In this document: in pieces, positions 6,786 through 50,138 of the stretch
Position numbering within the stretch: position 1 is the first letter of the stretch
How the letters are laid out: each line of letters begins with the position of its first letter
Virus record (IMG/VR): IMGVR_UViG_3300037104_000199
Span: 1-53,148 of that record
Direction: 5' to 3' (one strand)
DNA from: a virus
Taxonomy: Duplodnaviria > Caudoviricetes
DNA length: 53,148 nt
The notes under the pieces: generated by a model
The model's input: only the letters and a program-made list of their open reading frames with translations
The model's database searches: none
Told to the model about the DNA's origin: nothing
Made by a program: the position numbers and the translations under genes

Positions 6786-8354
6786 ATGACCATAGCCCCT
6801 AAAACGGTGGACGGTAGAGATACTTCTACACTACCTAAGTATAGTACAAAGAAAGTTGAAAGAACTTGTGATTCCTGTGGGGAAGTTTCAATTGTAAGTT
6901 GGCAAGATGTACTTAAAACAAGTTCTAGAAGAGGGGGCATAACTCTATGTTACACATGTGCCATGAAGTTAAACTCTGGGGATAATAATGTTTCTAAAAG
7001 ACCAGAAGTAAGAGCAAAGATATCAGAAAGGACTACTGGTAAACCTAAAAATTTTGGAAATCTAGAAAACCCTAGACTCCTTAAACGAAAACTTACTACA
7101 GCGGGGTATGTTTTAGTATGGGATGAGGTAACTAAAAAATATACACCTGAACATAGATTACTATTAGGACTATCACAAATGGATGGTAAGCAAGTACACC
7201 ATATAGATGGCAATAAGAGAAATAACTCTAAAGATAATTTAGTTATTATAAACTCCCCAGAAGAGCATAACAAACTACATACTCAACTAGAGTCCCTAGC
7301 CTTTCAACAGGTTAGTCTAGGGAATATTTACTTTGATAAAACTACTAATAATTACACACTTAAAGATGAGTCTAGTACCATACCCCTTAGTTTAGGCTTT
7401 GAAGATATAGCTATCTCTGAAAATAAGGCAACTATAAAATCTCGTTCAGAGATTGATATTAGTTCTGAGATTATTAGGGGTCTTAAATTACAAATTCCAC
7501 TTATTTCCTCTAATATGACTACTGTTACAAACCCACATTTTTGCTCTATTTTAGATTCTTTGGGATGCCTAGGAATTTTACCACGAACAGGAAACTCTGA
7601 AGAACAGAAGGATCAGGTAATATCCTTAAAGAAGGTATGTGAGACTGTTGCTACGTCTGTAGGTATCAGGGAGGGCCAACTAGAGCTAGCTAAAAATCTA
7701 ATTAGGGCGGGTGCCTCAATTATTGTGATTGATGTAGCTCATGGCTACTCTGAGTATGTTATGGCTTTTGGTAAAACTCTAAAAGCTTTTAGCCCATCAA
7801 CTAAAATTGTTGTTGGAAACTCTACCAATCCTGGGATTCTTTATGAGTCCTACAAATGGGCAGATGCTATAAAAGTAGGAATTGCACAAGGTTTTGCCTG
7901 TGAAACTAAGAATGTTGCGGGAGCTACTGAAAAGCAATTTTCGGCATTACTAAAATTCAAAAGAATTTCTTCTGAATTTGAAGTTCCTGTTATTAGTGAT
8001 GGAGGGATAAGAGAACCTGCTGATTTCGTTAAAGCCATTGGTGCTGGAGCCCATTCAGTTATGGCGGGTAAGGTTTTTGCTGCCTGTCCAGAAAGTGCTG
8101 CACCTTATGTAACTATTGAGGGGGGATTTTTAAAGAAGCTATATGCAGGTATGGCCTCTAGGTATGTCCAAGAAATCATGCATGGTACAGTACATAATGA
8201 TGCACCTGAAGGTACTATCAAGTATCTAGATATAGGAGAATCTGTAACAGACTTAGTTGCTAGGTATGCTGGGGCTCTTAGGTCGGGTATATCCTATTCT
8301 GGTGGAAGTAGTATAGAAACATTTCAAACCAGTGTAAACTGGGTAAGAATTTAA
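6786..8354 (+). CDS. HNH endonuclease fused in frame to a GuaB/GMP-reductase (IMPDH family) domain
   Basis: N-terminal CxxC..CxxC and EHR..VHHIDGNKRNN..NL; from about aa 200 LGFEDIAI, PLISSNM, IDVAHG, KVGIAQGFACET, ISDGGI..KAIGAGA..VMAG, YAGMAS, APEG, LRSGISYSG; no CBS domains. Confidence 0.9.
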   Translation: MTIAPKTVDGRDTSTLPKYSTKKVERTCDSCGEVSIVSWQDVLKTSSRRGGITLCYTCAMKLNSGDNNVSKRPEVRAKISERTTGKPKNFGNLENPRLLKRKLTTAGYVLVWDEVTKKYTPEHRLLLGLSQMDGKQVHHIDGNKRNNSKDNLVIINSPEEHNKLHTQLESLAFQQVSLGNIYFDKTTNNYTLKDESSTIPLSLGFEDIAISENKATIKSRSEIDISSEIIRGLKLQIPLISSNMTTVTNPHFCSILDSLGCLGILPRTGNSEEQKDQVISLKKVCETVATSVGIREGQLELAKNLIRAGASIIVIDVAHGYSEYVMAFGKTLKAFSPSTKIVVGNSTNPGILYESYKWADAIKVGIAQGFACETKNVAGATEKQFSALLKFKRISSEFEVPVISDGGIREPADFVKAIGAGAHSVMAGKVFAACPESAAPYVTIEGGFLKKLYAGMASRYVQEIMHGTVHNDAPEGTIKYLDIGESVTDLVARYAGALRSGISYSGGSSIETFQTSVNWVRI

Positions 8355-13979: not shown

Positions 13980-14017
13980 TATGGTGACCTCCTTGCTCCA
14001 ACTTTAGGAACTTGTAT

Positions 14018-14046
14018 AGTCTACCACACTTATGAATAAATGTCAA
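14018..14046 (-). promoter_or_regulatory. sigma70-type promoter with extended -10
   Basis: TTGACA-17 nt-TAGACT with TGTGG before the -10. Confidence 0.75.
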
Positions 14047-14294
14047 GGGGTTTTTCTACCAGGAGCAATAAGCATTCCGGAGAATACAAGAACGAAAGAC
14101 AAGAAGGAAATTATTAGCATCTATATTGCCCCCTTTTCTACCAGAAGAATCTCTTCCTATACTATATATCCTACACCAAAGCGTCCTTTGTGTGGTTGCG
14201 GTAGGGTTCTGGTTGGGTAACAGAAAAGTTACAGATTGGTTTTCTAAAAAATCCTTAGAAAAACTGGAAAATACTTTCCTCGTAAATGTGTACA

Positions 14295-14323
14295 GTAACA
14301 GACGTCCGAATGAAAAAAACTAA
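14295..14323 (+). repeat. degenerate copy of the GTAACAG-N9-TGAAA element
   Basis: gtaacag acgtccgaa tgaaa aaaac taa. Confidence 0.55.
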
Positions 14324-14388
14324 GCCGGCGACTTATATATAATGGGGGGGGAGTTATACACTTTGGAATGTATAACTCCCCGAATTAT

Positions 14389-14691
14389 TTACCTCGTTTC
14401 GATGGGCGAGAGGACGCATCCAAGCTTGTCAGCTAAGGAGCCCGCGATGCGAGCCGTTATCGGGGCCTCGGCGTGCATCCTATCCTGGGCAAGCCACAGA
14501 CCCGAGACAATCAGGCTAATCTCGGCAGCTGTTAGGTAGCAAGCGAATTCGTACTCCCGCGCATGCGCAGTGGGGGTACCGCATGCAGGTAGCCGGGTGA
14601 CATGGTCGAGGCAATGGGGGCCATGCATAGGCCGATCTGGCGCGTCCTGTTCGGACGCGTAAATTCGGTCCAGTAGTGAGGTGGAGTCCAT
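14389..14691 (-). CDS. hypothetical protein (GC-rich island)
   Basis: AGGAGG RBS; GC-rich codon usage. Confidence 0.6.
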   Translation of the reverse strand: MDSTSLLDRIYASEQDAPDRPMHGPHCLDHVTRLPACGTPTAHAREYEFACYLTAAEISLIVSGLWLAQDRMHAEAPITARIAGSLADKLGCVLSPIETR

Positions 14692-14823
14692 GATCTAACC
14701 TCCTGCTATAAGGGCTGAGGTAGGGTCTAGAGCCTCAATTCTGGGCACGGGCGATTTCTGGGTTTGATTGTTGCGCGCCGATCCTATCGGCTGAGGTTAC
14801 TGATCGCTGGTCGCTGTAGCGTC

Positions 14824-15141
14824 CTAGACGGCCATAGCGGCGAGTAGGGCGTCTAGGTCATCTTGCGTCATACTCTTGACCTTTGCTCCTCGTGTTCCAC
14901 CCTCCACTATGATGGTGCGAGCGGCGAGGTTGACTCCTCGCAAGTCTGCCAGGGTCAACGGGATGGAGATTAGAGGTGCCTTGCCTGTTTCGACGTTGAC
15001 GGCGTTCTGCCGGACGACCTTGCCTTCGTCATCGCGGAAGGACGTTGCCTTGGCATTTGCAACAATGCCAGCAGCGCGAGAAGCAGCGGTAGCGCGGAGG
15101 GGACAGAGCCGGAAGTCAGAGGATCCAGTGAGAATAGCCAT
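14824..15141 (-). CDS. hypothetical protein (GC-rich island)
   Basis: GGAGG RBS; GC-rich codon usage. Confidence 0.6.
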   Translation of the reverse strand: MAILTGSSDFRLCPLRATAASRAAGIVANAKATSFRDDEGKVVRQNAVNVETGKAPLISIPLTLADLRGVNLAARTIIVEGGTRGAKVKSMTQDDLDALLAAMAV

Positions 15142-15567
15142 AGGAGATTCCTCCAGCCTATGCCCAAAATTGAGACTCTAGACTAGTGCCCTATACCGCG
15201 CGCGGGTACTGATTCCGACGAAGCGTAGGGGGCTATTCGACTTGTTAAGGTGCGCTGGGCCTATACGATCCGGCGCCGACCATTTCGGCGGACCGCGGAA
15301 ACGACTGGGACAAACATACACATAGACTCCGCCGAATGCAATACCTATTTTGAGGCGATTTTGGGCGGGCTTCCCAGCTGTAGCAGGCGTACAGCCCAAA
15401 ATCGCTCCAGGCGACCGAATCCAGAGATTTTGGGTGTACGTGCGTCTGGACAGGATGCGCGCCGTAGCGTGGCCCTACGGTCGTCATGTAGCGGTACCGC
15501 CGGCCGATCCACCGATCGGACACCCCACCGGCTGTAATGCCCCAGGACGATTCTGGGCGTCTCCTAC

Positions 15568-15627
15568 CCTCGGCCCATGCCGGGGCTGGCCGCGTTCCTG
15601 GCCCGCCGAAGCGTTCTCGACGAGTAG
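15568..15627 (+). pseudogene. C-terminal remnant of a DUF1778/TacA-like antitoxin
   Basis: Reads PRPMPGLAAFLARRSVLDE*; its TAG overlaps the GTG of the GNAT fragment, as in tacAT-type operons. Confidence 0.55.
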
Positions 15628-15893
15628 TGGGCCGCTACAGCCAGATCGAGCCGCTCGCGCCAACGCACCAGACCGACGCCTTCGATTGCGTCTCTGAGGC
15701 CCAATCCACGTGGTTGCGCCGCCACGGTCTGCAAGCTCATCGATCCGATACGTGCAAGGTGTACGTGGTCTGCCGGCGAGATGAACCCGCGGTGGCTGGT
15801 TACTACGCGCTGGCGGCCGGATCCGTAGGCCACGAGACGGCTCCGCCGCGCCCCAGTACCCTCCGGGAATTATCACCTATATGCAAGGAGTGA
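15627..15893 (+). pseudogene. truncated GNAT acetyltransferase toxin (TacT/AtaT family), N-terminal half
   Basis: IEPLAPTHQTDAFDC..WLRRHGLQ..KVYVV..VAGYYALAAGSV; similarity stops near 15853, before the acetyl-CoA-binding motif. Confidence 0.8.
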
Positions 15894-15946
15894 CATAAAG
15901 AAAACTTTATCCTTGCATTTATCTTTAATCTCTAGGTAACAGCAAC

Positions 15947-16378
15947 GTAACAGAAACTCAAATGAAAGACGGCTAGCATTATACTAATCATTTATTTATT
16001 TTGGTTAGTGTAAGTAACAGACTTTTATTTGAAAGACGGTTACGACTTTTGCGCGCCCAAAATGGGCTGACAATTCCCTATTCAATAATCCTAGTACAAC
16101 TATGCCCCAAAGGGGGGCATCATAAACATACAAATATCTTATTAACTATCTTTCTTTAGACTTTACAAGTAACAGAAATCAAAATGAAAGACGGCTAGGC
16201 GTAATTGAGTCTAAAGACTCCGTGCAAAATTCTTACTACCTAACCCCCGGCAAATCCCTATAACTAATTCCCTAGTATAACTATACCCCAAAAGGGGGCA
16301 AATAATACATGTACATAACTTATTAACTACATTTTCTTAGTTACTCTATGTAACAGAATTCAAAATGAAAGACGGTTA
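15947..16378 (+). repeat. four tandem GTAACAG-N9-TGAAAGACGGYTA elements (15947, 16014, 16169, 16350); the last two lie in longer related units
   Basis: Direct alignment; units also share CCTAGTAYAACTAT-CCCCAAA-GGGGGCA and CTTATTAACTA. Confidence 0.9.
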
Positions 16379-21808: not shown

Positions 21809-22126
21809 CTAAAAGTGGTGGACCTTTTCAGAATCATCGGGCAATAAAGAGTCTTCCTCATCAAAATCATCAAAATCATCAAATCCTACTGAGTCATAAT
21901 CTTCATCCTCCATTCGATCCTCAGCAGCAAGAGTTAATATTGCGTCCAAAGCTGCTGTATAAAAGGCATCCTTGATATCATCTTCATTATCATTGAGGAA
22001 CTTTTCAGGCTCCTCTAGATTAGAAACAAATTCCTCCCTAACATCAGCCATAGATAACTCAATATGCTTATAGAAGATTTCATATAGCTGATCATAGATC
22101 ACTGGGTCTTTTGGTTTATATGCCAT
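21809..22126 (-). CDS. highly acidic hypothetical protein
   Basis: GAGG RBS; D/E-rich. Confidence 0.6.
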   Translation of the reverse strand: MAYKPKDPVIYDQLYEIFYKHIELSMADVREEFVSNLEEPEKFLNDNEDDIKDAFYTAALDAILTLAAEDRMEDEDYDSVGFDDFDDFDEEDSLLPDDSEKVHHF

Positions 22127-22230: not shown

Positions 22231-22421
22231 ACAAAGTAAACTACCAGGTATCACTACCTAAATGAGCAACACTCATAACACGATAAACCTTACTGCGCCA
22301 AAGAAGTCTACTAAACTTTTCTTGTCTCCCCCAAGCCTTTGCACAATAATTCTGCATAGCAAGATTACTGAGCATCTTCTGATAGGAGTCAAGCTTCTTA
22401 GTATTACTGCGTAAAGGCTTA

Positions 22422-23252
22422 CTAAGTAGCAACATTATCCCAACCTACCTTTCCGCGCATATTAACACCATAAGACTCTCCCTTATCAAGATCAAACTGA
22501 AGATCAGTCCACCTGAGAATTTCAATATCTTTTGCTGCTTCATCGCGCAAAGTTTGTGGGACTTCTTTACCCTCATCACGAAGCTTCTCAATAAGAGCAT
22601 AATTCTTATCCACACTAAGGGTGTACTTTCGGTACATCATAAGTGCGGAAAGAATCCACATAGCAGATGCCATATTAGCAGTAATAAGCTGCTCTCCACC
22701 CTCTAATGCAGCAATTGCTGCACAAGTCATGGTAGCTCTATCTGCTCCCTTATTTGAAATTTCTTGATGAAGGAAAGTAAGGACAGGGGTAATATTTTCC
22801 CCGCCCTTTCTCACCCACAATTGACAAGAACCTGTACTAACCTCATTGCCTCCATTAATAACTACAGCGTTATCAAGTGTCAAGCAATGAGACTGAATAA
22901 GAGCCCTAACTGGATAATTATCTACACCAATAAGGACAGTACATCCATCAGTAATAAGCTGATCAATATTGTCCTTACCAAGGTATTCATTGACGGGAAA
23001 AACCTTGTTAGTTTCACTATACCGACTTGCAGAAGCTACGGCCTTATTTGCCTTAATAGCTGACTCATCATATAGCTGCCTATCAAGATTCTTTTCCTCA
23101 ACATCATCACCATCAACAAGAAGCAATTCCCAAGTATTTTGGGCATTACGATAATGGGTTGTAAGGAAGCGGATTAATGGGTCAAGCAAGAAAGACCCGG
23201 TGCCTCCAATTCCCACAAGAACATATTTGTCATTTTCCATATTGCTTTCCAA
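22422..23252 (-). CDS. ThiF/E1-like ubiquitin-activating enzyme
   Basis: VGIGGTGS, LVDGDDVEEKNLDRQ, KA, GVDN..R, GGN, and TCA..EQ...N (candidate catalytic Cys). Confidence 0.9.
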   Translation of the reverse strand: MESNMENDKYVLVGIGGTGSFLLDPLIRFLTTHYRNAQNTWELLLVDGDDVEEKNLDRQLYDESAIKANKAVASASRYSETNKVFPVNEYLGKDNIDQLITDGCTVLIGVDNYPVRALIQSHCLTLDNAVVINGGNEVSTGSCQLWVRKGGENITPVLTFLHQEISNKGADRATMTCAAIAALEGGEQLITANMASAMWILSALMMYRKYTLSVDKNYALIEKLRDEGKEVPQTLRDEAAKDIEILRWTDLQFDLDKGESYGVNMRGKVGWDNVAT

Positions 23253-23253
23253 A

Positions 23254-24474
23254 TTACTCTCCTATGTAATCCTCAACCTCATCCACAGGCTGATTAAGCA
23301 TTGTAGACAATGTTGAAGTTGTTAGAACCTTATCCTTTTCAGAATCTGCTGAGGGATCAATAACTTCCCCCACCATAAAGCTAATAACATAGCCTGCCTT
23401 TTCGCACTCCTTATTAAGCTTCTTAGCAAGGAGTTCAATAGCTTCAGGCCAGTATTCAGGCTTAATCTTTCCGGTACGGACGGACTCTAACCATTTCTTA
23501 GGAACACTTATACCTAACTGCGAAGAGTAAGCACTACCTGACCCTGCAGTATAACCATCATAAGAATCCGGCCAGGAATCTTCATTCCCACCTTGCCAAC
23601 CCTTATACCACTTATTTGCGCGGGACTTATCCAAACCCCAATTCTGATTTGTAGTACTCTTTACAAATTGACCAACTGTTTGAGCAGTAGGCTTCTTAAC
23701 TAGGGAGTACCACCATTCAGGAATTCCAACATCTTCAAGTCCCACAACATCAGCAACCTCTTCAATCTTGTAATTGAAGTTACTTCCGCCAAGGGAAATC
23801 ATTGATGCAAATTCCATCTGCTTATAGTCTGTAACATGCCCCACAGTAATGTGTAGACCATCAAAAGTCTTAGCATCATGTGTATCTGTTCCAGAATGGA
23901 ATGCAGAAAAGACTGGATGGGAATGGACTGATCCTACTAAACTATACCCTGAAGGAATCTTAGTTGCATCAAAAGTATAATCGACACTTGCTCCCCCACA
24001 AATCTGCACAGGAACAAATACCTTGTATTCCTTAGTAGTAGTGTTAAAGAGAAGCATAACCTCTGCTTCCGTCTGGATTCTAGAATAGACGCCCCTAAAA
24101 AAGGAGACAATCTGATTCATGATAGCCAGGGGGATAATCGGGGCATCTTCATAATTATGCCAGAAAAGTCCACCCTTATGCTTAGGATCAACTGTACCTA
24201 AAACAGTGGGATGTTCCTTTGTGGGCATAATTGCTCTACCAAAAGCAAAATGCTTGTAGTAATACCAACCCTGCGCAGTAGGCACAAAATAAGGGCCATT
24301 ATCTGGCTGAGGAAGATCATAAAAGTCCCCATTGAACTTGGTATAAATATCAAGCAATCCTGGGGCTTCAATTACTGCTGCCTCTACAACTTCTAACACA
24401 GTTTCAATTTCCACAGGAAGATGAGTAGCTTCCCCAACAATTTCAACCTTAGGAAGGGTTTTCTTTTTGGTCAT
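23254..24474 (-). CDS. JAB/MPN+ metalloisopeptidase (prokaryotic JAB)
   Basis: TEA..VPVQ..ASVDY..GSVHSHPVFSAFHSGTDTHD..GLHITVG. Confidence 0.9.
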   Translation of the reverse strand: MTKKKTLPKVEIVGEATHLPVEIETVLEVVEAAVIEAPGLLDIYTKFNGDFYDLPQPDNGPYFVPTAQGWYYYKHFAFGRAIMPTKEHPTVLGTVDPKHKGGLFWHNYEDAPIIPLAIMNQIVSFFRGVYSRIQTEAEVMLLFNTTTKEYKVFVPVQICGGASVDYTFDATKIPSGYSLVGSVHSHPVFSAFHSGTDTHDAKTFDGLHITVGHVTDYKQMEFASMISLGGSNFNYKIEEVADVVGLEDVGIPEWWYSLVKKPTAQTVGQFVKSTTNQNWGLDKSRANKWYKGWQGGNEDSWPDSYDGYTAGSGSAYSSQLGISVPKKWLESVRTGKIKPEYWPEAIELLAKKLNKECEKAGYVISFMVGEVIDPSADSEKDKVLTTSTLSTMLNQPVDEVEDYIGE

Positions 24475-24701
24475 AACAACTCCAAAATTTGGATGCTGGT
24501 TAGGGGTGCATTTTTCCCATAGGTAATAGAACTAGCAATTTGCGTGAAATCCTTAGAAAAAACTCTTAATCCTGCCTTACTCTGTGTTTCAGAAAGTTCT
24601 GGCAGTTTCTCAAAAGTTTCCATAAGCTGTTCCATAGTTTCGGGGAAATCTTTAACCCCTAGAGACGAAACCCTAAGAAAATCAGGTGTAGTGTCAGCCA
24701 T
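24471..24701 (-). CDS. small hypothetical protein within the Ubl cassette
   Basis: Translationally coupled on both sides. Confidence 0.6.
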   Translation of the reverse strand: MADTTPDFLRVSSLGVKDFPETMEQLMETFEKLPELSETQSKAGLRVFSKDFTQIASSITYGKNAPLTSIQILELL

Positions 24702-25537
24702 TAAGCAGTAACCTCTTCTTCAAAGTCTTCCCAGACCTCTTCCTCAGTATTAAACTCTTCAACTTCCACAAATTCAGGGGTAGTTGCAGAAACTGCGGCA
24801 GGAATTTCTGCACAACCTTCAATGGTAATGCTCTCCTTTGGATTGTAGAAAGACAAGAACCTAATAAAGCCTGACAACTTTCCTGCTCGGTACTCATTAG
24901 GAATATTATCCCACCAATCCCACTTAAGAGCAACAAGTGGATCAGCTTTTGTTGCAACTGCCCATTCCCTAAATGTTTCATAGGGCTCAGGAATATTCCA
25001 ACCTAAATCAGCATTAAACACAGAAGCAGGGGTAAAGAACTGATTGACAATTGTATCAACCCTTTCATCTAATTCCAGATTACCCTGAGGGGCAGTACCA
25101 CCAAAACAAATTCGTCCATAATCCCTGTAGACATTGGGGAGTCTTGCAGGGATAACTGTTTGATCCAAAGTCTTCAATCTCTTCTGTGACCAGAAAAGAC
25201 TAACATCATCTATGCGCCACTTGATATTAGGATATGTAACATTGGCAACTTCCGAAAAAGGGAATACCATATACTGAAAGGGCATGGAAAGATACAAGCC
25301 TGCTTTCATTGCACTAGTCTTGATGAATTGCGGCCCTGGGTCAATCTCAACAACAAGATGAATCTTCTTATTTTCCTGGTAGTAAAATCGGCAGTTCTTA
25401 GGAATTCTAGGCAGAACAATAGCTTGTAAAGCAGGCATTTCTGAAAGGGCAGTCTTTAAGCTGACTACCTTTTCAATAGTAGTGCGCTCAATAAAAGCTA
25501 CCCCACCCTCAATTACAATTCTTTTCTTTTCTGGCAT
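24701..25537 (-). CDS. prokaryotic E2-like (UBC-fold) conjugating protein
   Basis: PARLPNVYRDYGRICFG (PNV..G.IC.G active-site Cys) and FF...FNADL; position between Ubl and JAB. Confidence 0.8.
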   Translation of the reverse strand: MPEKKRIVIEGGVAFIERTTIEKVVSLKTALSEMPALQAIVLPRIPKNCRFYYQENKKIHLVVEIDPGPQFIKTSAMKAGLYLSMPFQYMVFPFSEVANVTYPNIKWRIDDVSLFWSQKRLKTLDQTVIPARLPNVYRDYGRICFGGTAPQGNLELDERVDTIVNQFFTPASVFNADLGWNIPEPYETFREWAVATKADPLVALKWDWWDNIPNEYRAGKLSGFIRFLSFYNPKESITIEGCAEIPAAVSATTPEFVEVEEFNTEEEVWEDFEEEVTA

Positions 25538-25561
25538 TTCTTCTCCTCAGTGGGGGAATAG

Positions 25562-25595
25562 TTAAGGGGTGTACCTTTTACAATACACCCCTTAA
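25562..25595. promoter_or_regulatory. 12-bp hairpin between the Ubl and E2 genes
   Basis: TTAAGGGGTGTA / TACACCCCTTAA. Confidence 0.6.
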
Positions 25596-25612
25596 GCTAC
25601 TTAGGCTAAATC

Positions 25613-25822
25613 TTAGCCCTTAGAACCGGAAGGGCGCGCGAAAATAACCTCATCTCCACTTCGAGTAGTGTAATACTCATCCGTAGGAACACTATTAACG
25701 TATGCAGTAGCATCCGAAGGAATACCCATAATATCCTTAAGATTTGCTCGAAGATTACGAATAGTCGTGCAAGCAAAGGTGGCGTTAGTAAAGCTAGAGG
25801 CACCAGAAGAAACAGTAACCAT
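25613..25822 (-). CDS. ubiquitin-like (beta-grasp) protein ending in Gly
   Basis: 69 aa; AYVNS.P..Y....GDEVIF pattern of ThiS/MoaD-like folds; C-terminus SGSKG; AAGGAG RBS. Confidence 0.78.
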   Translation of the reverse strand: MVTVSSGASSFTNATFACTTIRNLRANLKDIMGIPSDATAYVNSVPTDEYYTTRSGDEVIFARPSGSKG

Positions 25823-25955: not shown

Positions 25956-26636
25956 TCATTCGGATGGGCAATTACAAGGATAATTACCGCATTCTGAGCA
26001 ACACTCGCAAGGATTTTGCTTGCATTCTTCACAACAAGTACAGCTACAGCCACTATGTTCACATTTATCACAATAACGGCAGTCATTGCTACCACATTCT
26101 GGGCAGCATGCACAATCGTCTATATATTCCCCACAATTGGGGCAAGTCTCTCTTGTATTGTCCTCATCTTCCTCATTAAAATAATCTTTATAAAGAGGTA
26201 GCATAGGAAATCCACTATTCTCGTAGCTCTCCATATGGAGATCACATAGAAAAATAGTCCTGCTATTAGCAGAGACACTTTTAGTTCCCTTGTAACTACA
26301 GTAAACTCCAAACTCGTCCTCTGTCTCTTCTCCTACAACTTGACCGTAGTCACAATAATCATTAGGCATGTCTAGGATTTTTGGTTTGAGGCCATTTAGC
26401 CAGGTCATAACATCCTCTAAGTTGTTGTTTCTAAAAACTCCTGGGGGAGTCTGTCCACGAACATAAATATTACCAATAGCCCAGGAATACTGGAGATATG
26501 AATCTCCATTAATAAAATTTGTGTAGTCAGGACCACTACCCTTGGTCCAGTCAATTTCCCAACCATTATCTTCAAGATACCTTGAAAGTTTAAGCAGAAA
26601 TTCTGGGGGATTATTCTCAAAATGCCGATGTGCCAT
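25956..26636 (-). CDS. protein with C-terminal Cys-rich CxxC repeats
   Basis: CPNC..CACCPEC..CRYCDKC..CSCTCCEEC..CECCSEC..CNC. Confidence 0.7.
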   Translation of the reverse strand: MAHRHFENNPPEFLLKLSRYLEDNGWEIDWTKGSGPDYTNFINGDSYLQYSWAIGNIYVRGQTPPGVFRNNNLEDVMTWLNGLKPKILDMPNDYCDYGQVVGEETEDEFGVYCSYKGTKSVSANSRTIFLCDLHMESYENSGFPMLPLYKDYFNEEDEDNTRETCPNCGEYIDDCACCPECGSNDCRYCDKCEHSGCSCTCCEECKQNPCECCSECGNYPCNCPSE

Positions 26637-27303: not shown

Positions 27304-27558
27304 TTACTCCAATCGGTAGGTATTACCCTTACGAGTAATACTGCCATAAAACTTATGACCATCATCAACAACAAAAGATATCTTGCGCCCATCAGGCATA
27401 TCAGTTACTGCACCATCAAATTCAGTTTCATATTCTGCCACTAGACAAACACAATCAGGATAAGTATTAAGCATCTTCTTAATCTCAGCCTTATTCCTGG
27501 GTGTAAGACCATTTACAGTAATTCCGTACAACCTAAAACTCCTTAATTCCAAATGCAC
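27304..27558 (-). CDS. hypothetical protein
   Basis: ORF in operon; true start may be downstream. Confidence 0.5.
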   Translation of the reverse strand: MHLELRSFRLYGITVNGLTPRNKAEIKKMLNTYPDCVCLVAEYETEFDGAVTDMPDGRKISFVVDDGHKFYGSITRKGNTYRLE

Positions 27559-28144
27559 TTATATTTTCTGGGAACAATTCCCTAAGCTTGAATGTAAAGA
27601 AGGATTCCATACCAATCCCCATACCAAAGAAGTGTGAAGTTGCATGGTTAATTCCTAACCAAACATCCTCTAAATCTTGCACCCAATTTTTGGCAAATTC
27701 AAAGCTCCAACGTCTAGACATACAAAGGTATGCAATAAGCACACACACTGATCGACTATTACCTGCCCCGCATTTCACTAAAATTTTGGGGCTACTAAAC
27801 CCTAAACTAACCAGTTGTGACTTACCTATAATTTTGGCCGCATCAGATGCTTGTATATCTAGAGCCTTTTCCCACTCAGAAAGTACACCAAAAGCCTCTT
27901 CTAGTATTCCTTCAAAATCTGGGTTGAATTCTGAGTCAAACATCCTTATGAAATGAAAGTTAATTAAATTCTTTGACATAGCTTCTGTAACGGAAGCTAT
28001 TCCTAAACTCGAATCCTCATTTGTGAATTGAAGATCAAGCACAGCAAAGATGTTATTATCCTTTAGAAATTTAGCATCCTTCTCTATATCCTGCCATCCA
28101 CCACTAAGGGCAAATCTATCGCCAATACATCTAAAGTTAAGCAT
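27533..28144 (-). CDS. dual-specificity/tyrosine phosphatase-like protein
   Basis: IFAVLDL; ILVKCGAGNSRS (CX5R loop)..LIAYL. Confidence 0.82.
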   Translation of the reverse strand: MLNFRCIGDRFALSGGWQDIEKDAKFLKDNNIFAVLDLQFTNEDSSLGIASVTEAMSKNLINFHFIRMFDSEFNPDFEGILEEAFGVLSEWEKALDIQASDAAKIIGKSQLVSLGFSSPKILVKCGAGNSRSVCVLIAYLCMSRRWSFEFAKNWVQDLEDVWLGINHATSHFFGMGIGMESFFTFKLRELFPENISAFGIKEF

Positions 28145-47786: not shown

Positions 47787-50138
47787 CTATAAATCACTAA
47801 AAAGCATATACCTAGGAACCCATTTAACTTCCACTAGTCCTAACCTTCCATTTCTATTCTTAGCTACTATTACTTCCGCTATATCTTCTTCCACGCCCCC
47901 AAATGCCTCACCATAAGATTCCCTATGAAGAAACATTATGATATCTGCTGACTGTTCAATTTCACCAGAAGCTCTTAGGTCTGCCATACCCGGGCGCTTA
48001 TTAGTACGCTCCCCACGCTCATTGGAGGGGCCTCTACTTAGCTGTGAGAGTACAATAACTGGGCATCCTAATTCCTTACCCAAGCCTCTCAATTCTTTAC
48101 AAGCATCCCCAAGAGTATCCACTTTATTACCTGTAGGGAGTTTCATAAGGTGCAGGTAGTCTACAACTATAAGACCTACCTTACCCCATTCATAGAGCAT
48201 TTGCCTTCCAAGGGATGTAATGTAACTTGTAGATACATTAGGTCTATCGTCTACATGGAAGGTTTCCATTACCTTTTCCAGTGATTTATTTGCCCCAGCA
48301 ATATCCGCTACCATACCAGGATTAGCCAGGTAGGTACCCGAACGAATATCTTCGAGAGGTACCTGGGCTTCTCGGGCAAGTAATCTTTCAAAGATTTGCT
48401 CTTTAGTCTGCTCTAAAGAGAAAAATAAAACTGGCCCTGTGTTTACAGCATGCCTAGCAAGATTAACCGCAAAGGCAGTATTATGCGTTGGTATAAAGTC
48501 ATCTGTAATGTACAGATGACTACTATTATCAATCTTAATACACTGGCATTCTTTAGAACCTACAAAATCTATAGAAACTACCTTCCTTGTATGTACCCTA
48601 TTACTAACTCTCCATTTTCTGGTATGCTTTAAAGATGTAACTGGAATTTCCCCATTGAAGAATCTTATGTATAATCTATAGTAAGTTAAAATACTGGTTT
48701 TATCCCTATAAGTATACTTAAGATACTTATGCCCCTCTCGTACCACACCCCCTAAAGAACGTACTAAAGTACAAACATCCTGAGCAAGTTTCTTAGAACC
48801 TGTACAGTAATCTACTATACTACTACCATTAGCCATCCCCCCATCAGTATCTAAAAGACCTTGTAATAACCTCATCCTATTTTCAGGTGTAGAGTACAAG
48901 TACCTTTCAGGAATGAATTTATGTAGACTCCCACAAAGAAGACCTAGTTCCTCTAGGTATTGTTTAGTGTCACTTTGGGTATGGTTATAAACCTTACGTA
49001 CTACATTACTATGCAAACTGTAGGGATTTACTAAGGTATCCCCTTCTGGAAGAAGTTCTAACACTTTGGCCTTTATGTCCTTTTCGGGGTTGCATATATT
49101 CACCATTGAATTTCCCAAGGTACCATCACCCAGAAGAACTCCCAAAAGGTAAGGATCAAGCTTTAGGGGTTCCTCAGAAGGGGTGTAATTTACCCTCCCA
49201 GTTATAGGTAAAATATGGTTGGGATACCCTCCAGAATTTTTTAAACTACCTAGTAACTCCTTGGTTGATTTAACCGACCCCGGAAAATCCCTAAGCCTCT
49301 CGTTCATAGTTTGCGTAAACCACAAATGATCTAAAGAGCACTCGGTAGAAGTACCATCAGATAAAGTTACCTTATACACATCCAAAGGCCCTTGTGGGAA
49401 AACTCCAGTAACATTACAAGCAACCCCATCAGAGCCTATAACCTCATCCCCAACCACTAAACTGCCCATTGGTACAAAACCCTTAGGGGTCAGTACTTTT
49501 GCATCTAAGGGTTGTGCCTTCCCTAAACTCGTGCGGGCGGCAACAATAACCAATCCCTCTAACCTATGGAGAATTAGGTCCACTTCTGTAAGACCTGTAG
49601 TAATTCCTTCTGCGTTCTCATCCACACGATTAACAAGGTTCTTTACAAACTCTTGATAAGCTTCAACGGAAGACTCTCCTGTGTCATCAAGCACTCTTTG
49701 CTTGATAAAGTTTGCGAAGTTATCTTCGAGTTGTTGTAATACTTCTGTGGCATTAGCATTATCTTTGTAAGCTAATTCAACTATATTTTGCCCCAAAGTT
49801 ATTGCTGCTCTAAGCTTAGCTTTATCCTTAACTGTTTCAGCATAAACTATAGCATTAGATATACTAGGAACTAGCCTATCACTATCTGCTACTAAGTTAG
49901 CAAAGTACTCCTTAGACCTATCCGACAGTTTCTCCGCAACAGTAAGGGAGTCCGCAGCACCTTGGAGGTCGCATATAACATGGTATATTTCCTGGTGCTC
50001 ATTCTTATAGAAATCACTAGGCTGTAGTATCTCAGAGATTCTAGGTAAAAGCATGGGGTCTGAAAGTATCGCGACCAACACTGCCTTTTCTATATCCTGG
50101 CTGTAGGGTATCTTTGTTATTTCTGGGTTAATGGTCAT
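47787..50138 (-). CDS. dnaB: replicative DnaB helicase containing an intein
   Basis: DFY..H..IY, TGL..VD, AARTSLGK/T, FFSLE, VVDYLHL, LSQLSR, DLRASGEIEQSAD, AKNRNG. Confidence 0.95.
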   Translation of the reverse strand: MTINPEITKIPYSQDIEKAVLVAILSDPMLLPRISEILQPSDFYKNEHQEIYHVICDLQGAADSLTVAEKLSDRSKEYFANLVADSDRLVPSISNAIVYAETVKDKAKLRAAITLGQNIVELAYKDNANATEVLQQLEDNFANFIKQRVLDDTGESSVEAYQEFVKNLVNRVDENAEGITTGLTEVDLILHRLEGLVIVAARTSLGKAQPLDAKVLTPKGFVPMGSLVVGDEVIGSDGVACNVTGVFPQGPLDVYKVTLSDGTSTECSLDHLWFTQTMNERLRDFPGSVKSTKELLGSLKNSGGYPNHILPITGRVNYTPSEEPLKLDPYLLGVLLGDGTLGNSMVNICNPEKDIKAKVLELLPEGDTLVNPYSLHSNVVRKVYNHTQSDTKQYLEELGLLCGSLHKFIPERYLYSTPENRMRLLQGLLDTDGGMANGSSIVDYCTGSKKLAQDVCTLVRSLGGVVREGHKYLKYTYRDKTSILTYYRLYIRFFNGEIPVTSLKHTRKWRVSNRVHTRKVVSIDFVGSKECQCIKIDNSSHLYITDDFIPTHNTAFAVNLARHAVNTGPVLFFSLEQTKEQIFERLLAREAQVPLEDIRSGTYLANPGMVADIAGANKSLEKVMETFHVDDRPNVSTSYITSLGRQMLYEWGKVGLIVVDYLHLMKLPTGNKVDTLGDACKELRGLGKELGCPVIVLSQLSRGPSNERGERTNKRPGMADLRASGEIEQSADIIMFLHRESYGEAFGGVEEDIAEVIVAKNRNGRLGLVEVKWVPRYMLFSDL
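48480..49517 (-). mobile_element. intein (346 aa, Ala-start) with LAGLIDADG endonuclease, in the DnaB P-loop
   Basis: GK|AQPLD start; HLW; LGVLLGDG and LLQGLLDTDG; CQCI; THN|T end. Confidence 0.93.

Follow-up and report, generated by a model that had tools for sequence, protein, structure and literature searches.

The window analysed here is the whole of the 53,148-base linear IMG/VR virus record IMGVR_UViG_3300037104_000199 (rated 44% complete), a tailed-phage DNA that encodes a compact cassette for a ubiquitin-like protein (Ubl), an E2-like protein, a JAB metallopeptidase and a ThiF-type E1, with a small open reading frame (ORF) between the E2 and JAB genes. With moderate confidence we read this cassette as a self-contained Ubl conjugation module expressed in the phage's own infection, in which the JAB would both process the modifier and reverse its attachment. 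The analysis shows the folds and family links of the proteins, their intact catalytic motifs, a conserved gene order, constraint on the coding sequences and the phage setting. An earlier note on this DNA had claimed five co-oriented, coupled ORFs at 22422-25822, and all five are present there on the minus strand (Table 1). It had called the core proteins a 69-amino-acid beta-grasp Ubl with a terminal Gly, an E2-like protein, a JAB peptidase and a ThiF-type E1 with a candidate Cys; each of these calls stands, and AlphaFold2 predicts both folds that the note had proposed to check, the beta-grasp of the Ubl and the UBC-like fold of the E2.

The E2-like protein itself has no match in Pfam, NCBIfam (E<=0.1), PHROGs or PADLOC and fails the gathering score (25 bits) of Prok-E2_D (PF14460). 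Only three close relatives were present among 5.8 billion clustered proteins; a profile built from these and the window protein recovered 475 cluster representatives (E<=1e-3) among 1.84 billion. An alignment was made from 86 of the best 150 matches, picked for full-length match. At E<=0.01, 58 of the 86 match Pfam Prok-E2_D and 36 match NCBIfam PRTRC_B (best 2.2e-8). A single PADLOC match in this set, to LeoA, is at chance level and was rejected, and no credible defence match was seen there. Residues P86, N135, C144, G146 and W192 are invariant throughout the alignment. Three of them lie in the candidate active site, P134-N135-x8-C144-F-G146, where LPN takes the place of HPN; a P-N-x8-C-x-G spacing is as expected for a UBC active site. 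The AlphaFold2 model computed on the 86-sequence alignment (predicted local distance difference test, pLDDT, 84.1) is UBC-like, with an N-terminal beta-hairpin extension and a disordered acidic tail (residues 235-278). Foldseek matches of this model to the PDB were weak (best Rad6, E 0.18), UEV and RWD proteins are among its structural matches, and a comparison with BFVD gave four matches at E<=1e-3, three labelled uncultured Caudovirales and one unlabelled. A search of PDB sequences with the E2 profile returned a lectin as its best row (E 0.073), which was discarded as chance-level, and another such search returned nothing. In the ESM Atlas, Prok-E2_D is present in 28 of the 30 clusters nearest to the E2, whose classified members are mostly viral; the cluster annotation of ten E2 relatives reads 'hypothetical protein' only. 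The UBC-like model, the invariant Cys and the links to Prok-E2_D and PRTRC_B through relatives support the assignment of the protein as a UBC-like E2 with Cys144 as its predicted catalytic residue.

No family model matches the window Ubl (Pfam, NCBIfam and PRTRC_C were tried). Its AlphaFold2 model (pLDDT 90.1) has beta-grasp topology, and MoaD, ubiquitin or Ubl-domain structures fill the first 50 Foldseek ranks, with MoaD, ThiS and TtuB leading (best MoaD, TMq 0.74). The ESM Atlas neighbours are small and mostly viral, with ThiS found in 14-56% of their members. Seven Ubl orthologues have I34, G56, D57, F61, G66, K68 and G69 in common and all carry the C-terminal motif G-[SQE]-K-G, the Gly being terminal in six and followed by two further residues in the seventh (contig L008). 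Model, structural matches and the invariance of G69 uphold a beta-grasp fold for which an exposed C-terminal Gly is predicted.

The E1 matches Pfam ThiF well above the cut-off (1.3e-17, 64.2 bits against 28.1). Its best NCBIfam matches are ThiF/MoeB models, and PRTRC_ThiF is reached at 3.1e-8 with 33.3 bits, under the cut-off of 144.75. All adenylation motifs are in place: G14xGGTG19, D47-G-D49, R58-Q59, N69-K70 and D111-N112 are invariant in five of five sequences, as is C177, whose context is [ST]CA in the Vibrio phage D69 and Bacillus phage WH1 homologues. A profile of the E1 matched 59 PDB sequences, including MoeB, ThiF, Uba4, UBA5/6/7, NAE, SAE2, MccB, TcdA and Cap2. We infer that Cys177 is the equivalent of the E1 catalytic cysteine. 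For the JAB, the Pfam Prok-JAB score lies just above the cut-off (1e-5, 25.8 bits against 25) and the NCBIfam PRTRC_A score under it (2e-6, 27.5 bits against 101.8). The JAMM site E...HxH-x7-S-xx-D is complete, with E136, H184, S185, H186, S194 and D197 invariant in eight of eight JAB sequences, and the PRTRC_A-like core (~130-230) is flanked by N- and C-terminal extensions. The JAB is predicted to process Ubl precursors and to deconjugate.

Pattern scans yielded ten metagenome contigs and one contig from a metagenome-assembled genome. The order Ubl-E2-(small ORF)-JAB-E1 is kept in every contig that is long enough (phmmer; L002-L006, L008, L009 and the window): the cassette is complete in L004, L006 and L008, while L009 and L002 end after the JAB gene and L003 and L005 end earlier. 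The 226- and 210-amino-acid genes upstream are common only to the closest relatives, L003-L006. In L008, L009 and L002 the four core genes stand together amid flanking genes unlike those of the window, and since the core persists amid differing flanks, the conserved unit is Ubl-E2-JAB-E1. Catalytic residues are invariant among relatives at 19-65% identity. The ratio of nonsynonymous to synonymous rates (dN/dS) against orthologues is below 1 for all five genes (0.16-0.84), a rough estimate, as dS is mostly above 1.4 and saturated. Contigs from four other peat runs differ from the cassette by 23 substitutions, of which 8 are synonymous and 15 nonsynonymous, and stops and indels are absent; at a contig depth of 2-5 these runs are little informative on selection. 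No match to the region (blastn) or to the E2 (tblastn) was found in INPHARED. In IMG/VR no relative was confirmed with the E2, the JAB, the E1 or alignment A3, a search that used few peptide patterns confirmed with the window protein and so misses distant kin.

The 76-amino-acid small ORF is found only in the nearest relatives of the window. Orthologues are present in L003 (1e-25) and in L004 and L005 (8e-11), L006 has a 65-amino-acid ORF of 16% identity in the same position, and L008 and L009 have no ORF between the E2 and JAB genes. It has no family match (Pfam, NCBIfam, PHROG, PADLOC and further family scans) and evolves fast, and its dN/dS of 0.19 against L003 points to constraint.

Table 1. 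Positions of the cassette genes and of the stem-loop in the window
Feature	Position	Strand	Description
Ubl	25613-25822	-	69 aa, ends SGSKG; predicted beta-grasp modifier
E2-like	24701-25537	-	278 aa, LPNVYRDYGRICFG; Prok-E2_D / PRTRC_B superfamily
Small ORF	24471-24701	-	76 aa; coupled to E2 and JAB
JAB/JAMM metallopeptidase	23254-24474	-	406 aa, HSHPVFSAFHSGTD
E1	22422-23252	-	276 aa, GIGGTGS...VDGDDVEEKNLDRQ; ThiF/MoeB-size
Stem-loop in Ubl-E2 spacer	25557-25601	-	minimum free energy -33.2 kcal/mol

The genes are tightly packed. The E2 stop overlaps the small-ORF start by 1 nt, the small-ORF stop overlaps the JAB start by 4 nt, and 1 nt separates the JAB stop from the TTG start of E1, with an ATG four codons further into the E1 gene; by this arrangement E2, small ORF, JAB and E1 are judged to be translationally coupled. 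The Ubl gene is preceded by a strong ribosome-binding site (AAGGAG) and separated from the E2 gene by a spacer of 75 nt. A hairpin lies in this spacer, 3' of the Ubl stop (z -3.74; none of 200 shuffles was equally stable). Hairpins with differing stem sequences occur at the matching site in L003, L004, L006, L009 and L002 (z -4.1 to -7.1), and that of L008 is weak (z -2.0), so that the element is stable in six of seven cassettes, the window included. A U-run follows in L006 and L002; no U-tract follows in the window, where a promoter and terminator scan gave nothing beyond shuffles and did not call the hairpin as a terminator. The hairpin is possibly an attenuator or an RNA-stability element that uncouples Ubl from enzyme levels.

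Among the systems that the earlier note had named as kin, PRTRC was the right one: relatives of the E2 match PRTRC_B, the JAB matches PRTRC_A and the E1 PRTRC_ThiF. PRTRC (NCBIfam TIGR03735-03742) corresponds to operon class 6d of Iyer, Burroughs and Aravind (2006), for which row 6d of their Table 1 lists a Ubl, a JAB, an E1 and an E2 without the His of HPN (PMC1779556). The description of the class given there also includes an absolutely conserved His after the E2 Cys and a fast-diverging alpha-helical protein with conserved charged residues (PMC1779556). Ralstonia phage Dina carries a canonical system (NC_055026 gp02-gp07), which in RefSeq runs from PRTRC E through C, F, B and A to ThiF. Like PRTRC, the window cassette has the four core activities in the order E2 (B), JAB (A), ThiF with Ubl (C) upstream (gp04, gp03, gp02 and gp06 in Dina), its E2 is without the His of HPN, as in class 6d, and it is carried by a mobile element. 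Hidden Markov models (HMMs) of the cassette families recovered PRTRC_B (1.4e-8), PRTRC_A (1.3e-14) and ThiF (5e-14) of Dina in a search of eight proteins. The Ubl end G-x-K-G is common to the window and to PRTRC_C of Dina, in which VGRKG is followed by ~60 more residues.

Unlike PRTRC, the window has a Ubl of mature length with no C-terminal extension, a JAB that is ~150 residues longer, a lineage-specific 76-amino-acid ORF between E2 and JAB, and an E2 without the conserved His after the Cys; its carriers are large, apparently virulent phages. In the comparison with the helical protein of class 6d, the small ORF was seen to evolve fast and to be missing from L008 and L009. The window proteins fall far below the PRTRC cut-offs or show no match, the E2 having none to PRTRC_B (cut-off 131.45 bits) at E<=0.1. 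Six-frame searches of the 53-kb record, which at a rating of 44% complete may lack a distant copy, gave no match to ParB_N, PRTRC_C, PRTRC_E or PRTRC_F (PRTRC_D was not searched). The scores of JAB and E1 against PRTRC_A and PRTRC_ThiF show homology, not membership. We place the cassette beside PRTRC rather than inside it, as a diverged and reduced homologue of the PRTRC/6d module, because it falls short of the curated cut-offs and the accessory genes and the conserved E2 His are lacking.

The other kin proposed, Bil and CBASS, are much more distant, since PADLOC matches the E1 only, and weakly. The sole match to Bil (BilABCD, types I and II) is BilD on the window E1 (E 0.011). Bil is host-encoded, with CapH/CapP regulators, and its E1 is described as having an IAD-AAD-CYS architecture (PMC11601596), as against the 276-amino-acid single adenylation domain of the window E1. 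The same source presents Cap2 of CBASS as an E1-E2 fusion that conjugates the CD-NTase, not a Ubl, and the Bub (6E) systems as working through Ser/Tyr oxyesters and a DUF6527 protease without a catalytic Cys (PMC11601596); in the window E1 and E2 are separate, the E2 Cys is invariant, and a Pfam scan of the cassette proteins gave no match to DUF6527.

Cassettes were also found in cultured phages. By tblastn, JAB and E1 genes are adjacent in Salmonella phage Arash, in Vibrio phages D69, D181 and D148 and in an unverified faecal phage contig, and the E1 was detected in Bacillus phages vB_BceM_WH1 and Edson as well. Virus Rctr197k and Acinetobacter phage MD-2021a share the E1 only and were rejected as carriers. 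With cassette-derived HMMs, gp248c of Arash, an ORF of D69 and gp214 of WH1 were recognised as the E2 and gp215 of WH1 as the JAB; the E-values refer to small ORF sets. Phages of this type have the order E2-JAB-E1, as in the window, in genes that are not annotated as such and are labelled hypothetical or structural. Their JABs are 19-23% identical to that of the window. In sequence these versions are intermediate between PRTRC and the window, Arash reaching PRTRC_A at 1.8e-21 and PRTRC_ThiF at 7e-15, and both Arash and D69 have two extra genes (one for 233-320 amino acids and a small one) between Ubl and E2. The JAB of Arash has tblastn matches in 10 of 50,697 phage records, Ralstonia phage Dina among them, and the gene order recurs in eight phage-like contigs, the window included.

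In Arash, an unannotated 66-amino-acid ORF ending TGTKG (L013:6014-6214, -) is, by its sequence, likely the Ubl; it overlaps the annotated gp251c in another frame, and that annotation may be wrong. In D69, VPHD69_0307 (L014:5295-6086, -) encodes 263 amino acids with three tandem Ubl repeats, each ending (K/R)TGTKG, which would make it a poly-Ubl precursor from which the adjacent JAB would release monomers. No Ubl was found upstream of the E2 in WH1, where no ORF ends in Gly; the expected position before E2-JAB-E1 is taken by gp213 (L016:164-1693, +), a coiled-coil-rich protein of 509 amino acids. In the LC-MS (liquid chromatography-mass spectrometry) data reported for Arash particles, Gp246-249 and Gp251 are listed among 116 proteins that include many enzymes (PMC10585845). 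GenBank labels gp246c (the E1 homologue) and gp248c (the E2 homologue) of Arash 'structural protein', and the numbering of the paper and of GenBank may be offset by one. We take these data only as evidence of expression, that is, that the Arash homologues are made as protein.

We infer the chemical steps and the targets of the window cassette as follows. The ThiF-type E1 would bind the 69-amino-acid Ubl and adenylate its C-terminal Gly69, and the Ubl may then pass to Cys177 of the E1. Next it would move, as a thioester, onto Cys144 of the UBC-fold E2, which would attach it to lysines of target proteins. As the cassette encodes no E3, target choice would fall to the E2 and its variable C-terminal tail; our preference is for host or phage proteins modified in the phage's own cycle. 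The JAB would trim Ubl precursors where these are present and reverse conjugation, and the hairpin after the Ubl gene would allow more modifier than enzyme to be produced. Relatives include Ubl forms that would need a peptidase, namely those of L008 (two extra residues), D69 (triple Ubl) and Dina (PRTRC_C, ~60 extra residues). Bil operons, with the same gene set, are described as conjugating their Ubl after pre-processing by the JAB (PMC10557695; PMC11601596), and by analogy the window cassette would conjugate its Ubl as well.

Several points weigh against conjugation by the cassette. The structure nearest to the Ubl is MoaD, a sulfur carrier, and not ubiquitin. The E1 is a single adenylation domain of MoeB/ThiF size, without a separate Cys domain or ubiquitin-fold domain (UFD), and alignments to solved E1s end ahead of Cys177. 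The His that follows the Cys in class 6d E2s is absent, no column of the 86-sequence alignment being more than 30% His. We identified neither a RING protein nor any other E3, the Arash proteome, with its 116 proteins and many enzymes, speaks for expression and not for packaging, and our literature search, with most subscription journals outside it, found no biochemical result for this cassette, PRTRC or class 6d.

The nearest alternative by chemistry keeps all enzymatic steps and moves the role to conflict, with the module either tagging structural proteins of co-infecting phages, as Bil does, or neutralising host Bil, CBASS Cap2 or Bub through its JAB and E2. The bacterial Ubl-E1-E2-JAB systems characterised in PMC11601596 and PMC10557695 act in antiphage immunity, and such a role would fit a cassette that lies among small accessory ORFs rather than structural genes and is patchy in phages. 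We regard it as rather unlikely, as no PADLOC defence model matches the Ubl, E2, small ORF or JAB, the neighbours scanned showed no CapH/CapP or WYL regulator, and nothing ties the cassette to any host system. A further alternative limits the chemistry to activation and processing: the E2-like protein would serve as an adaptor without catalysis, and the E1 would ligate the Ubl directly or the Ubl would act non-covalently. UEV and RWD proteins, non-catalytic members of the fold, are found among the structural matches, the match to the fold is of moderate strength, and Bub E2s are described as working without any Cys (PMC11601596), an indication of plastic chemistry in these families. The invariance of C144, N135 and G146 in 86 diverse sequences would be hard to explain without catalysis, and we see little likelihood in this alternative.

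A role as sulfur carrier, in which the ThiF-type E1 would adenylate the MoaD/ThiS-like protein, this would become a thiocarboxylate supplying sulfur for a modification of phage nucleic acid or of a cofactor, and the JAB would only trim the carrier, draws on the structural matches of the Ubl to MoaD, ThiS and TtuB, on the share of ThiS in its ESM Atlas neighbours, and on a ThiF-sized E1 with ThiF/MoeB as its best NCBIfam models. Clusters of this kind (ThiS/MoaD-JAB-E1) are also listed by Iyer et al. (2006) (PMC1779556). The most constant partner in our set is, however, the E2 with its invariant Cys, for which sulfur pathways have no use; the MoaD-MoeB and ThiS-ThiF pairs have no E2 partner. MoaD and ThiS end in Gly-Gly, whereas the window Ubl ends in Lys-Gly and its penultimate Lys is invariant. 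The E1 has no rhodanese domain, and none of the neighbours scanned looked like a MoaE, ThiG, CysM, TtuA-type or desulfurase gene; likewise, no thiamine or molybdopterin gene turned up in Pfam, PHROG and NCBIfam scans of the neighbouring ORFs submitted, as the earlier note had stated. We consider this role quite improbable. Least of all do we expect an accessory of replicon maintenance or partition (a 'ParB/ThiF partitioning cassette'), which we hold to be very improbable. PRTRC was named for its link to ParB-related genes, and a prophage paper of 2026 calls the PRTRC cassette in a Burkholderia prophage a partitioning cassette (PMC13366799); that is a label, and the passage concerned itself says that function was not studied (PMC13366799). 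No ParB_N match exists in the six frames of the window, and the carrier phages look lytic and large. We keep to a conjugation module used in the phage's own infection as the most likely reading.

A PHROG scan of the larger ORFs of the window revealed genes for a DNA polymerase, primase, ribonucleotide reductase, UvsX-like recombinase and DnaB-like helicase, and further for an RNA ligase, an exonuclease and dNMP kinases. Two tRNAs are present, beyond which an Rfam scan of the window gave no match. None of the 50,697 deposited phage records matches the DNA polymerase at more than 33% identity, and the phage therefore represents a lineage not yet described. It is an uncultured phage from peat: Logan contigs with near-identical DNA come from runs labelled peat metagenome, in several coded studies, and no RNA run was listed among them.

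Some genes next to the cassette are of separate interest. Directly upstream of the Ubl gene, 25956-26636 (-) encodes a 226-amino-acid protein with an acidic stretch and a very Cys-rich C-terminus of many CxxC and CxC-E-C units. Its conservation is limited to L003-L005. There is a weak resemblance to the Cys-rich C-terminal tail of the E2 homologue P0007 (E 0.035, a single pair) and none to P0005, and the protein may serve as a zinc-binding partner or act like an E3. Downstream, a 64-amino-acid ORF (22241-22435, -) shares 14 nt with the end of the E1 gene and is followed by a very acidic protein of 105 amino acids (21809-22126, -); both are conserved only in L004 and may be lineage-specific additions to the operon. 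A 203-amino-acid protein (27533-28144, -) carries the dual-specificity phosphatase-like motif KCGAGNSRS (Pfam DSPc 8.2e-8, 32.6 bits, slightly below the cut-off of 33.5).

Elsewhere in the window, 14001-16000 is a GC-rich island (GC 0.54 against 0.35-0.44 in the rest) with Arg/Pro-rich ORFs overlapping on both strands and no Rfam match, which may be foreign DNA or an assembly join. The DnaB-like helicase (783 amino acids, 47787-50138, -) has its helicase match broken into two stretches, and its residues ~190-577 resemble terminase large-subunit or DnaC-like ATPase families; it may contain an insertion or intein or be a fusion. Adjoining the UvsX-like gene, on the strand opposite to most genes, a 522-amino-acid ORF (6786-8354, +) has an HNH-endonuclease-like N-terminus and a C-terminus matching a PHROG 'dehydrogenase'.

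As to novelty, the earlier note had implied that a phage-borne cassette of this kind was new. It holds for the variant; it does not hold for the kind, since a canonical PRTRC system is already annotated in Ralstonia phage Dina and is noted for a Burkholderia prophage in PMC13366799. The phage cassette is thus a variant of the known but uncharacterised PRTRC kind. In the literature searched, neither a functional study of PRTRC, class 6d or Prok-E2_D nor a description of a phage Ubl-conjugation cassette beyond PRTRC annotations turned up. A review of jumbo-phage genomics (PMC7824862) contains no occurrence of JAB, ThiF, E1-like, E2-like or Ubl, and a table in a 2026 review assigns ubiquitin signalling as an accessory function to giant eukaryotic viruses, not to jumbo phages (PMC13359090).

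Because the E2 profile reaches 475 cluster representatives and the nearest ESM Atlas clusters are mostly viral, we tentatively propose that a minimal, PRTRC-derived Ubl-E2-JAB-E1 pathway might be widespread but unrecognised in large tailed phages, rewiring host or phage proteins during lytic infection. The compact cassette recurs in many uncultured phages, and more PRTRC-like versions are carried by culturable phages of Salmonella, Vibrio and Bacillus. As no function for PRTRC/6d was found in the literature searched, a phage model such as Arash, Vibrio phage D69 or Bacillus phage WH1 would make the question testable. The invariant Lys-Gly end means that trypsin should leave a single-Gly remnant on modified lysines, a direct proteomic read-out. 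The questions raised are what is tagged, whether an E2 without an E3 chooses its targets, and whether a ThiF-sized E1 can feed an E2; the enzymes might even be delivered with the virion. If the proposal is true, the cassette would encode the first complete Ubl conjugation cascade of a prokaryotic virus. Work on bacterial Ubl conjugation has so far treated it as a host defence against phages (CBASS Cap2, Bil, Bub), and here the complete toolkit is on the side of the phage.

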